The notes beneath the pieces are model-generated. The model was not told where the DNA came from. It saw only the letters and a program-made list of their open reading frames with translations, and did no database searches. A stretch of 64,000 nucleotides of DNA from Eledone cirrhosa. Taxonomy: Eukaryota. The stretch covers positions 362,824,001 to 362,888,000 of the forward strand of contig OZ024741.1 in the NCBI GenBank assembly GCA_964016885.1, in the 5' to 3' direction. Position numbers and translations under genes: made by a program. Of this stretch, positions 33,601 to 39,600 are shown piece after piece; within the stretch, counting starts at the first letter, position 1; the number at the start of each line of letters is the position of its first letter.

Positions 33601-36600
33601 TTCTTATAGATGACAAAAGTGAGCCTAGTTTACGAGTATAAGCTAAGCCAGATTACAGCAACATGAAGTATTGGGCTAGAGAAAAATTGGGGCCCCAGGT
33701 ACATAAATGTAGGTCTACACATAAAATGGTACTGAGATTCCAGTATCGATCCATTCCGACCAAAAAAGTTGGAGAACCTCTAGCCTAGTGGCTAGGGTGT
33801 TAGACTCACAATCATAAGGTCAATGGTTTGATCCCTGGACCAGGCAGCATATTGTGTTTTTGAGCAAGATGCTTCATTTTATGTTACTCCAGTCCTCTTA
33901 CCTAACAAAAACAAAACAAAACAAAAACAACATGCTGGCAATCACTATTTTCGTGATTGGGTTGGAGCCCATATTAAAACATACACTTGCTGGTGGCCAA
34001 TTAAACCTACATAGGTGTGAACTGTAACAAGATGGGTGATGCTATGTTGAAGTTAACTTAGAATATAGGACATAAATAACAAACTAGAATATAACAAATA
34101 AAGTAAGTGCGAGTCTGTTTTAAGAAATAAGAATCATCATTTTAAATTTGCTTTTCCATGCTCATATGGTTAGACGGGTCTTCTCCGCACAGTTTGCCTC
34201 AACTCGTATCCCTTTGTTATCTCCTCTGTGAATGAATCTTTCAGAACGAACATTTCCTCTAACTATTACATCTTAAAACCAAACAACATTGCTCTAAATT
34301 TATTTATTTTTAAATGAAAATATGTATTAACTGTATATTACTAAAATGCAATATATATGAGAGATAGAACAATTCAGTTCTGAATAAAACTATTGCTAAA
34401 ACTCTTATAGTCTATTAGAGTTTATACAGTTATAAATATATGTTGATATAATGCTAGCATCAGTTCTCCTTCCTTCTTAATGTTTAATACAATTTATTAT
34501 ATATCTCTTCCAAATTTGGTATCAATATTTAAATATTTAACTCTTAACATCTGGTAATGATTCAGTAGAAAATATCTAAATATGGGTATAATTTAAATGT
34601 TTATAGTATCTTTACGTGTAAACAGATTGTGAAAATTTGCAGTATTAGAGTAAAGACTTTAATTTTTAATGTGAACGTCTTTTTAATGTAGTTCCTTGCA
34701 GTACATGACGTTAAGAGTTAATATATATGATTCGTTTCTCCCCTCTATATGATTGTATATTAATCTGTTCCATTTTACTTTTTACATTTTATATTTCTTA
34801 ATAATGAAAACTTCTAAATTCCAGCCAAGTCATTGGTGTCCCCTAATTTCTTTTTCACTTTGATTTCTTTTCCTCAAAAATCAATACAGTTATCCCCTCT
34901 CTCTTCCCGTTTTCTCTTTAAAATTACTGTCTAGTTGACCATATTTAGGTCAATGAAATGTTACTGTGCTATATTTCCACAGAAATATTCTCAACTGATG
35001 GAAGACTTTTTACAAGATGACCACGACCATGAAGTGTCCGTTGTGTCCCTCTCTGTACAAATCTTTACCCTAACCAGTCTGGTACGTTAATCAGGAAAGC
35101 ACATGGCAGTCTCTCTATGCAGTTGCATAAACATTATCAATTACCTGAGCATAAATCACAGCCAAATCATCAACTTTATTGTACTTCAGTGAGACTCGAT
35201 AGCTTCTTCATTACATTAGATTATCAACTTGCACATGAACTAGATTAGTGTTGGAAGTAGGTGTATATAGTTACTGTGACAATTTTATCAAGTTATTTAA
35301 CTCTTTTGCTACTAAACTGTCTGAAAACAGCCCTGTTCTATGACACAAACCTGTTTATTTTAAAGTGTTTAAATTTACTTTTTAAAAAAAACCTTGCATC
35401 ATAATTTTACATTTAAGTTATATTTCAAACACCAACTTAATAATGAGAAAGTTAGTTATTTTACTAAATCCCTCCAAATTCTTGATTATTTTCAAAATTA
35501 TTTGGAAGATCATAGGCAGTATTTTTTATTAGAAATAGAGCAATAAAAGTATTAAATGAAATGTTACTTTTGGTAGATCTCTTAAAAGTAGTAGAGAATT
35601 GATTTCCTCAGATAGCTCAAGTGTATTACCTTTGGATAAATATAAATATATTTTAAACAAACTTTGTTTTATACAGATTTTGTTCATAGCCGAATGCAAT
35701 GAATTCTTGCATAATATAGCTTATTTTCTCTTGTATAGTTTATTTTCACTAAGTCTTGTATAGCAGTTGTTAAAATTGTCTTCACATTAGTACTGCAACT
35801 GATTGCTAAAACGAACAAGTAAATGGTTATGGGGTTACAGGTATCACAGCTTCAGTCTTGGTTTCTTGGTTATATATATATATATATATATATATATATT
35901 GTTTGCACTTTATTGCAATGAATGTAATGCTTGTTGGGGGCTTGACTATAAGGCAAATTCCATCAAATATTACATCAAGATATTACAAGACATTCATGAT
36001 TGATTTACCTTGTTTACTTCTAGATGAGTCAGTTTTTTTTTTAAAAGGCATGAAAAGATGCATGTGACTTATCTCCCAAATCTTGCTTTGTGCTTGAAAT
36101 ATTAACTGATAACATCCTATAACGATTTAAAAGAAAATATCTAAAATGGGTTTGTTAATGTAAATGTTTGTACTGTTTTTACTATTGGACAGATTATTGT
36201 GAACATTTGCTATATTAGAGTGAAGACTTCAATTTAGAATGTAAACCTGGCATAGTGCTATTTTGTACTTTTCAAAATATGACTTGCTAATAAAGTTTCA
36301 TACAATACAAGATGTTAAAAGTTGAATAATGAAGCCATAATAAGGACATATACACAAGTATATACAATAGTTTTTGTAATAATTCTTTATTATTTGAGTG
36401 AAAATGTACAAAACTAATGTGTTCTGCTTATTACAAACATTTTCTAATTGTTTCCTTTACATTTCATTATAAAATGATGGAAAAAAGGCATATCTTCAGT
36501 CAGCTTTTTTAATTATAATAATAATAATAATAATAATAATAATGAAATTATTGTGTAAAGTGCTCAGGTGCACTACAACTCGTCAAGAAAGTACATAGAA

Positions 36601-39600
36601 TAATACACAAATGTCAGGGAAGTACATGTGTGTATGTGTTAGCTGTAGTGTTGGCGGATCTCGGGAAGCATGGAGGCCTTAAAGGATGCAGTGTCTCGAC
36701 AGCTAACAACTGATGCAGGTAGTTTGTTCCATGCTTCAGCAACTCTGAGCGTGAAAAAATGTTTCCGAAAGTCATGGGAACTGTGCTGTTTTCTTACTTT
36801 GTGGGCATGTCCACGTGTGTTAGACACATGGAAATCGAAAAGGCACTCAGGGTTGTTGTTGGCAACATGGTTAACAATTTTGTGGGTGTTTACCAAGTCA
36901 GTTGCCAGGCGTCGGAGCTTCAATGAATCCATGCCCAGGGAAGCAAGGCGCTCAGAGTATGGTAGATGCCTGATGGAGGGTATTCGCTTGGTTGCACGTC
37001 TCTGAACAGTTTCCAGGCGGTCAATGTCCTGAGCAAGATAGGGGTTCCAGACTGGTGATGCAAATTCTAAGTGTGGTCGCACCATAGCTGTATACAGCCT
37101 TAAATAGATATCTGGAGAGCGGCTGACAAAGGTCTTGCTGAGTGATGCTAAGACACCCTCGGCCCTCTTGACAATTTTAGAGACGTGCCTCGCCCAACGC
37201 AAATCGCTGCTGACCGTAATGCCCAGGTCACGTTCACAGGAAGACTTCTTGATATTTATCTAAGTTTACATGTGATATTTGTTCACAGCAATATTTTAAT
37301 GAAGATTTCATTGTTTTCTGGAAGTTTCAATGGTTGAAATATTACTTGCTTTAAATAATCTTTAGTTCTTGCTTATAAATTACATGCTGGAAAAAAATAT
37401 CAAAATCAAAATTTGCAAAGTTACTGAGAATATTCAATTCATGGATATTTTGTTTATTTATATACTTTTACTGTTATTAACCCTTTTGAAACTAAATCAC
37501 CTGAAACCAACCCTGGTTGTATGGTACTAAACTGTTTATTTTAATATGCTTATATTTATCTAAAAACCTTCCATCCTAATTTTATGCAAGAACCTTTACT
37601 ACTTATGCTCTAAATAACAATTTAATAATAAAAATGCTACATTACTTTAAACACCTTCAAATCTGTGATTATTTTCAAAATTATTTAAAAATTAATATAT
37701 AGTGTATTTCATGAGAAATACGGTAACAAAAGGGTTAAACTTCTTAAAGCTTTTAGAACATATTTTCTTTGTTATAATTTTCCAAACAAAATAAGTTATT
37801 AAAGAATTGAAACAATTAAAAAATTTATTGGGAAAAAAAAAAAAAAAAAAAAAAAAGGAAATTGTTTGTCCATGGCAGCACCACAAAATACTATAGCTGC
37901 ATGAATAATTGCTTTTATAATAATAGCATAAGTATTTGCGTTATCATTTTTTAAAAGCAAATATTTTGTAATTTTATAGCAGTTGTCATATTTGTTGATA
38001 TCAATAATTTTGAGAAAATAAATAGAATAATGTATCTCATTGAACTTAGTAAATATTCTCCCGTGTGTAATAGTTTTTAATAGTTTTATAAGAACACAAC
38101 AAGCATTTTAAGGCAAAGGTTGACCTTGTGGGTCTTATCACATGGAGACCTTTCTGAAGCAAAGTTTTTTTCAGCTGGCTGCCCATCCTACCACCAACCC
38201 TTTTAGTTTTCTCTTACAACATTCAGAGATATGGTATACTTCTTTTGAACTAGATATACATAGTTTCACTGCTGTACATTTTTAAAAAATATGCTTTAGT
38301 GAAACATTGGTTTATAAAAAAATTAAATTAACCTTTTTGATACAAAATTGCTTATTTTAAACTGTTTATATTTATTTAAAAACCTTCCATCATAATTTTA
38401 TGTAAGAACCTTCAAGTTGTGCTCCAAACACAAACTTAATAAGGAAAAAATTAGTTATATTACTAAATCCTTCCAAATTCTTGATTATTTTCAATATTCA
38501 AAAATTATGGGCACTGTATTTCATTAGAAATAGGTTAATGAAAGAGTTAAATACGAAATTAAAAAAATACCTTTATCTAATTTACATGTTCATCTATTAG
38601 TTTTTCCTAATGATATATGCACACACTATTTTCAGCTGCTTTCAAATTTAAAAACTTTGATAGAAACTAATGTAATCATTTAGATCAGGGACCCCCAATC
38701 TTTTTAGATCACCATGGAATTTTTTGTCCCTTATCAACCTTAGCCATGTACAAAAATAAGGAAATAATTCAGTAAACAATATAAAATAGTCATTAAAGAC
38801 TAATTATATATAAATCAGAAATAGGTATAAGCAAGTTAGCTGTATTTTAATGTATTATTTTATGCATTTCCATTTCTTATATATATGTCAGGTTTTGGTC
38901 CAAATGGTCAATCCTTTGGCTGGTCTCATTGACAACTGGGGGGTGGATACCGATTACTTTTGGAAGTTCTGCTCTAGAGTATCTATCACTCCATCAGCCA
39001 GTAGGATACTGACAACTTTGTGTAGTCACTGTAGTTACAATGTTCATGGAAAATATATAATGTATACAATAAAATCAAAATGCTCACAGATTCACATTTG
39101 TCTCACTATTCCTTCCCAGAAAGTCCTATTTATTCCTTAGGTAGACTTATTGAACGAGGAAGGCAGTGTGTGGTAGGGGTGGTCAATATCGACTTAGGTA
39201 TTGTACAGGTGGAAAAGTAAAGTTGATAATTTTGGTTGTTATCTATGTTCTGTGTTGTATTTGATTTATGAAGGTGCAAAAGACTGCTATGTGTAAAATA
39301 TTTTTATTGCTGTTTCTTTTGATTTTCTTGTTTCTTATTTTAGCACTATGCTGTACTTATGCAGAACTTTATCAAGGACGATCATTTACGATCTGTTTCC
39401 ATTATCTCTGATTCCCTTCAGATTTTCACAGCTCCTAAGGTGGTAGGTTCTTTCTACTGCCATCTCATTCTTTAGCAGTGTTTTACATCTAACGGAACTG
39501 TCTGAACCTTTGTGTTTTTTTTTTCTTTTTGTTTTAATGCTGTTTTCATTCCCAACATTATGCAATATATGCTGTGAATAATATCTTTAAAAGATCTTGG

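Follow-up and report, generated by a model that had tools for sequence, protein, structure and literature searches.

Does a gene that carries two versions of the same short exon use them together or one at a time, how might such a choice be enforced, and what would it alter in the protein? The question is raised by a UBR1/UBR2-family N-recognin gene on contig OZ024741.1 of the octopod Eledone cirrhosa. In a stretch of 64,000 nucleotides (nt), referred to below as the window, two of its exons, 11a and 11b, lie in tandem between two constitutive exons. The answer favoured here, with a probability of roughly 0.7, is that the octopod pair is likely used singly, likely by means of a predicted RNA helix, and that 11b gives a ligase with altered reading of hydrophobic N-degrons. 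The elements concerned are, in window coordinates:

30935-30986, plus strand: upstream constitutive exon ('exon 10'), with a phase-0 donor; 17/17 to Octopus sinensis UBR2 by tblastn
34983-35081, plus strand: exon 11a, 99 nt, with the ancestral-type loop DDH-D-H; 33/33 to O. sinensis, 32/33 to Sepia
35082-39343, plus strand: intron between 11a and 11b, 4262 nt, containing repeats and a retroelement-like fragment
39344-39442, plus strand: exon 11b, 99 nt, with the derived loop DDH-L-R-S; 32/33 to O. sinensis, 29/33 to Argonauta, 27/33 to Sepia, 20-21/33 to scallops and Pomacea
42201-42282, plus strand: downstream constitutive exon ('exon 12'), with a phase-0 acceptor, located by tblastn with the O. 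sinensis protein

In the window both 11a and 11b are preceded by AG, followed by GT, phase 0-0 and stop-free, so that in equal length, shared phase and canonical splice sites they are tandem homologous exons. Fifteen of the 33 residues are identical and 11 of those 15 use different codons; at the nucleotide level 52/99 positions agree, and only 9/33 third positions. An earlier sequence-only reading had described two such 99-nt exons, and its coordinates, splice sites and counts were all reproduced. Its placing of the pair between the two constitutive exons also holds, although 'just downstream' of the ClpS domain does not: in the O. sinensis orthologue ClpS occupies residues 219-297 and the duplicated exon residues 389-421, about 90 residues later. 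The names 11a and 11b are labels and not an exon count, since ten coding exons were identified upstream of 11a within the window, the gene's first coding exon not among them. When the species' own genome (3.0 gigabases) was searched with the 11a peptide, these two places and no others came back (2/2 candidates scored, best candidates only). Each copy has orthologous copies in other species and neither is therefore a chance match; a pseudo-exon is likewise ruled out by conservation across mollusc classes.

The evidence on exon use comes from gene models and assembly-derived proteins of relatives. The models of O. sinensis and O. vulgaris hold a single copy in 9/9 cases (5 a, 4 b), those of O. 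bimaculoides are a-type (4/4) and the one from Argonauta is b-type (1/1). Combined, 14/14 octopod models carry one copy or the other and 0/14 carry both. A decapod cluster of 12 members includes seven proteins that span the region, five with a, one with b and one with both. Two cuttlefish-type proteins, P0020 and P0024, are each 1753 residues long and differ at only 17 residues, all inside the exon; we infer that the 6.0-6.1-kilobase (kb) assembly contigs encoding them are spliced transcripts. In each of the scallops Mizuhopecten and Ylistrum there are two isoforms of equal length; they differ at 14 residues in the former and 13 in the latter, again all in the exon. AlphaFold, with an alignment of 23 rows, gives for the a form a model with a mean predicted local distance difference test score of 80.5. 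There the exon begins where a single residue interrupts two successive helices and terminates within a helix, and its DDHD falls in a loop between helices. According to the passages covered of PMC5740500, inclusion of both copies should be deleterious when exon ends fall in or beside helices. On the relatives' models and proteins, 11a and 11b are very probably spliced either-or, as the sequence-only reading had proposed.

The pair is not confined to octopods. It is present in cephalopods, scallops and snails, and in invertebrate lineages that branch beside the molluscs, and the upstream and downstream copies are each conserved as their own type across cephalopods, bivalves, gastropods and further invertebrate loci. 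A metagenome scan gave 24 loci, 18 with one copy in a longer open stretch and six with two spliced tandem copies (AG/GT), of which L010 and L011 are vertebrate-type and L022, L031, L032 and L033 invertebrate. In a tree of the flanking sequence, from which the exon was excluded, L022 and L032 lie outside the mollusc group (94/95) and are sister to it (90/93, not starred); too few columns excluded L031 and L033. As a guess, the two-copy invertebrate loci are annelid-like and the single-copy loci arthropod-like. A tree of the exon itself (33 columns) clusters 13/14 downstream copies (88/65), the upstream copies needing two changes; it took in 11 of the 18 single-copy loci and eight vertebrate pairs, without UBR1, lamprey, amphioxus, echinoderm or a named annelid. 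Because the copies cluster by position and the pair occurs in lineages outside molluscs, it likely predates the mollusc classes, which are more than 500 million years old, and the duplication can with good confidence be set before the mollusc radiation. Copy a is the more conserved (to Sepia, 32/33 vs 27/33). The old duplication under purifying selection that had been proposed is supported, with both peptides recovered in other cephalopods and molluscs including scallops and snails, and its age and spread exceed what had been supposed. One observation weighs against conservation of the b type: in Physella P0070 and P0152 the downstream copy is far diverged (an HS-RS-H shift, and FG for FT), yet a b-only model exists.

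The two types differ in the loop. Position 15 is D or E in 11/11 upstream invertebrate copies, 156/156 vertebrate copies (among the proteins listed) and 11/11 single copies, that is in 178/178, and human UBR1 has D; among the downstream copies it is acidic in 1/14, the others having Y (five), L (four), M, S, A or F. Position 16 is H in 11/11 upstream and R in 14/14 downstream copies, and the charge of the loop shifts from -3/-4 to -1. Two differences had been named beforehand: DHE versus LRS is the conserved one, while the D of SDSL occurs in only 3/14 downstream copies, all octopod. Separate acidic gains are seen at positions 22-23, namely D22 in the vertebrate downstream copies (8/8), D23 in octopod 11b and E23 in three invertebrate metagenome upstream copies; these positions are possibly a second tuned site.

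A profile alignment with yeast Ubr1 places the exon at about yeast 546-579 and human 395-427, and the loop at yeast 557-562. In this alignment D318 and H321 belong to the ClpS motif, and residue 560 is E, which pairs with position 15 by hand count. Mutation of D318, H321 and E560 of yeast Ubr1 reportedly abolished type-2 recognition selectively (Xia et al. in 2008). By analogy, the exon loop would support the type-2 (ClpS-like) site, a suggestion that is put forward tentatively from the alignment and the reported mutant effect. Isoform a would then be an ordinary two-site ligase reading both degron types, and isoform b, its type-2 site weakened or shifted, would read hydrophobic degrons weakly or differently. 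Three points tell against this assignment: E560 pairs with position 14 instead if a one-residue gap is shifted; the papers searched for the residue do not name it; and the downstream copy of L033 retains D15. It is an even call whether the isoforms differ instead in a surface for another purpose, such as allosteric coupling, a partner protein or an internal-degron site, or in fine-tuned stability. The exon does lie about 90 residues beyond the ClpS domain in the helical scaffold, the vertebrate copies have diverged with position 15 untouched, and yeast Ubr1 has further, poorly mapped sites, according to the passages covered of PMC11914429. Set against this, the change common to the b lineages sits at the very loop aligned with yeast E560 and takes its charge from -3/-4 to -1. 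One such purpose can be discarded, for the loop is not the acceptor-ubiquitin loop, which the part covered of bioRxiv 2021.04.12.439291 gives as yeast 678-681 and which maps about 100 residues later, in a later exon.

How could the two copies be kept apart? Several known routes to exclusion are ruled out at this locus: a steric block in the linear sequence, which would take a short intron or a remote branch point (the intron measures 4262 nt, the AG-free zone before 11b 59 nt), frameshift followed by decay (99 nt is divisible by three), and U2/U12 incompatibility (the donors are GTAAGA, GTACGT and GTAGGT, unlike the U12 consensus). An initial screen of nine splice-site-proximal region pairs left one that stood out (0/40 shuffles); docking-site/selector pairing within 200 nt of the splice sites found no support in the eight other pairs, which were at shuffle level. 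The elements of the outstanding pair are:

35099-35112, plus strand: predicted helix arm 1, intron +18 to +31; flank single-copy in the genome
39281-39294, plus strand: predicted helix arm 2, at -63 to -50 relative to 11b; flank single-copy in the genome
39295-39343, plus strand: predicted branch-point candidates of 11b (-38, -22; yUnAy pattern scan), pyrimidine tract and acceptor

The predicted helix between 35099-35112 and 39281-39294 has 14 base pairs and an energy of -22.3 kcal/mol, and 0/300 and 0/4000 dinucleotide shuffles were as low. The best of 28 other intron-end pairs in the gene reached -11.0, and arm 1 paired with the region after 11b is unremarkable (26/300 shuffles as low). Between exons 10 and 12 the two arms are reciprocal best partners (-24.0 vs -17.0 and -14.8). 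With the helix formed, the effective distance from the 11a donor to the 11b branch point would be 29 or 45 nt, and the steric limit for this distance is given as about 50 nt in the passages covered of PMC5740500 and PMC7969005. Pairing of the arms, which is given even odds of being the mechanism, would loop out 4.2 kb and leave only those 29 or 45 nt. The shortened distance would bar the joining of 11a to 11b, and each copy would stay usable with its outer neighbour. The intervening introns of other pairs are 70 (human), 73, 71, 53 and 46 nt long, close to that limit, and the helix would mimic these 46-73-nt introns of other lineages. A precedent is reportedly published for Dscam exon 17 (Yue 2013, by its title alone).

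Several results count against such a role. The helix was found post hoc after nine region pairs, 1/60 shuffles reach its score when bulges are tolerated, and local pairing takes up about half of each arm. An equivalent helix was not found in the long introns of L032 (1081 nt; 15/60 shuffles) and L033 (554 nt; 50/60). That absence, together with 3/1848 other donor-acceptor combinations in which the energy is as low, would agree with a genuine either-or splicing that depends on splicing factors or some other mechanism, the 14-bp helix being incidental; protein-controlled exclusion is published for Rdl exon 3, according to the passages covered of PMC13762713. This alternative falls only a little short of even odds; against it, the helix occupies the single intron, and the places within it, in which it could have an effect, its arms are reciprocal best partners and none of 4000 shuffles equals it.

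In L032 (5980-7060) a different 14-bp helix is predicted between intron +103 and the downstream copy's pyrimidine tract (2/300 shuffles); it might mask the downstream acceptor. Inverted repeats across 30900-42300 were uninformative, the 25 longest of 167 being low-complexity or repeat-like. An AT-rich dispersed repeat of 200-300 nt occurs several times, in either orientation, around exon 11a (33000-38560), and the 11a-11b intron contains, on the minus strand at 36642-37259, a stop-free frame of 206 residues that resembles the 3' end of a long interspersed nuclear element (LINE) and has no Pfam match; a shorter copy of this LINE-like frame lies at 11653-11847.

The same exon is duplicated in vertebrates, as was recognized from a two-copy fish-like protein among the search matches. 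In human UBR2 it is catalogued as event 232, two tandem 33-residue exons with two transcripts, in the parts covered of the PMC8373072 supplement and of PMC9741552 supplement S2. The former gives the exons as chr6:42617240-42617338 and 42617409-42617507, with a Gnathostomata date and a proteomics flag; the intron between them is 70 nt. The event rows covered in these two sources give no tissue or function entry, the passages covered of the PMC9741552 main text name no UBR gene, and the rows listed from the PMC5740500 supplements include none for UBR1 or UBR2. The octopod pair had been suggested to stand in for the vertebrate UBR1/UBR2 split. This idea fails, because in vertebrates UBR2 carries a duplicate of this exon in addition to that split, whether the origin is shared or independent; moreover, the acidic residue lost from copy b is retained in human UBR1 and in both copies of UBR2.

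By comparison of the exon sequences, the invertebrate pair appears somewhat more probably independent of the jawed-vertebrate UBR2 duplicate than not. In the best exon tree the two vertebrate copies come together (80/76); they have N1 in 15/16 and Q6 in 16/16 cases and a higher mean identity with each other (20.0) than with the invertebrate copies (16.5-17.5). Against independence, support for vertebrate monophyly is no higher than 80/76, and approximately unbiased (AU) tests rejected 0/4 vertebrate-invertebrate cross-pairings (p 0.18-0.38); a grouping of each invertebrate copy with one vertebrate copy is absent from the best tree and is not rejected by these tests. The AU results, the identical exon, length (99 nt) and phase in both lineages, and the R16 common to all vertebrate copies and copy b could all be explained by one ancient bilaterian duplication, kept by jawed-vertebrate UBR2 and by invertebrates, with one copy lost by UBR1 and the single-copy animals. 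Such a history is rather unlikely in view of the union of the vertebrate copies in the best tree with their shared residues and mutual identity, the occurrence of the same Q6 and R16 in human UBR1, and the catalogue's Gnathostomata date. In a Drosophila-human comparison most exon duplications in shared families were independent, according to the passages covered of PMC9741552.

Models that hold both copies weigh against either-or use. They comprise Sepia pharaonis P0017 (1/7 of the decapod proteins spanning the region), 2/5 models in Physella, 1/2 spanning the region in Pomacea, 3/6 in gar/Atractosteus and, among the vertebrate proteins listed, 41/115; the vertebrate listing is 120 of 451 matches, and its query favoured two-copy models. 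These may be prediction artefacts or genuine leakiness. That 11b is a minor cassette exon able to co-occur with 11a, or is barely expressed, would suit the two-copy models of Sepia, Physella, Pomacea and gar, the frame-preserving 99 nt, through which decay would not remove a two-copy mRNA, and the b type in only 1/5 full-length assembly-only decapod proteins, but it is very improbable given the lack of any two-copy model among the 14 from octopods, b-only models in seven species or clusters, a b type conserved across classes, and the 33-residue insert that would separate helices continuous in the predicted model.

The host gene can be followed through most of the window:

12396-63185, plus strand: UBR1/UBR2-family N-recognin gene, part within the window; the gene runs on about 31 kb beyond the window end

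Pfam finds zf-UBR, ClpS, UBR1-like_wing and PRT6_C in the expected UBR1/UBR2 order on the O. sinensis orthologue, to which the window and downstream exons are about 74-100% identical per high-scoring segment pair (tblastn). No RING family is reported by Pfam on the orthologue; Cys/His-rich exons lie downstream, and there is a whole-length match to 9WBV. No second UBR1/2 gene was found in the Eledone genome by two protein searches, one with the 11a peptide and one with a neighbouring exon (one place), in which only the best candidates were scored. Octopus UBR models P0001-P0010 differ further by alternative splice-site choices of two and six residues (alignment columns 171-172 and 1055-1060). 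Over 58 nt a later UBR exon and its acceptor are duplicated perfectly (56119-56176 and 56497-56554); the second copy, 378 nt downstream, has no donor GT, and the duplication is either partial, non-functional and very recent or an artefact of assembly. In the intron preceding exon 10, on the minus strand at 25444-28563, is a near-intact non-LTR (long terminal repeat) retrotransposon, with a 764-residue frame (endonuclease and reverse transcriptase), one stop, and then a 275-residue frame with a PHD finger.

Taken at its broadest, the evidence would allow that molluscs and their relatives have kept for more than half a billion years a splice switch in the loop supporting the hydrophobic-degron site of their single Arg/N-degron ligase, able to produce a naturally type-2-altered N-recognin when required, that vertebrate UBR2 acquired its own independently, and that the octopod helix replaced a short intron as the intron grew; as a whole this account is doubtful. 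N-degron specificity is usually treated as set by the domains of the ligase, and a conserved splice choice in a loop linked to the type-2 site, if true, would retune half-lives by tissue. The isoform pair is ready material on the role of the loop, and bears also on the two human UBR2 isoforms in the catalogue. If the identical exon was duplicated twice independently, this would be a clean case of convergence, and the helix, if true, would explain how exclusion can persist while introns lengthen in the large genomes of cephalopods.

The kind of event, the human UBR2 counterpart and both octopus isoforms in automatic models are already known. The sequence-only reading knew of no prior description; no paper on the pair was found, so that much stands, with the qualification that the public octopus models contain both isoforms and the human counterpart is catalogued. 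No description of a UBR1/UBR2 exon pair or of cephalopod mutually exclusive exons was found in the literature searched, most subscription journals lying outside the search. None of the following turned up in that literature: the invertebrate-wide pair, the coincidence of the exon with that of vertebrates, the fixed acidic loss and the helix predicted to close the intron.

Among known systems, the RefSeq/ENA models (Octopus sinensis, O. vulgaris, Argonauta and the scallops, X1/X2) hold both a- and b-type proteins, produced automatically and without comment. The structures of yeast Ubr1 (7MEX; bioRxiv 2021.04.12.439291) and of human UBR1/UBR2 (9WBW, 9WBV) share with the octopod protein the UBR box, ClpS-like domain, helical scaffold and winged helix, as far as the parts covered of these sources describe them; the solved chains hold one exon copy and none lacks the acidic loop residue. 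Human UBR2 event 232 is alike in gene family, 33-residue exon, 99 nt, tandem copies and two transcripts. It differs in having a 70-nt intron and two copies that keep acidic 15 and R16, whereas the octopod copies are separated by 4262 nt and the acidic residue is missing from copy b; the vertebrate duplicate is confined to UBR2, and the catalogue passages and rows covered include no invertebrate UBR event. With steric-exclusion systems the octopod locus would share a short effective donor-to-branch distance as the barrier to joining the copies, and differ from them in a linear distance of more than 4.2 kb, closed by a single predicted 14-bp helix.

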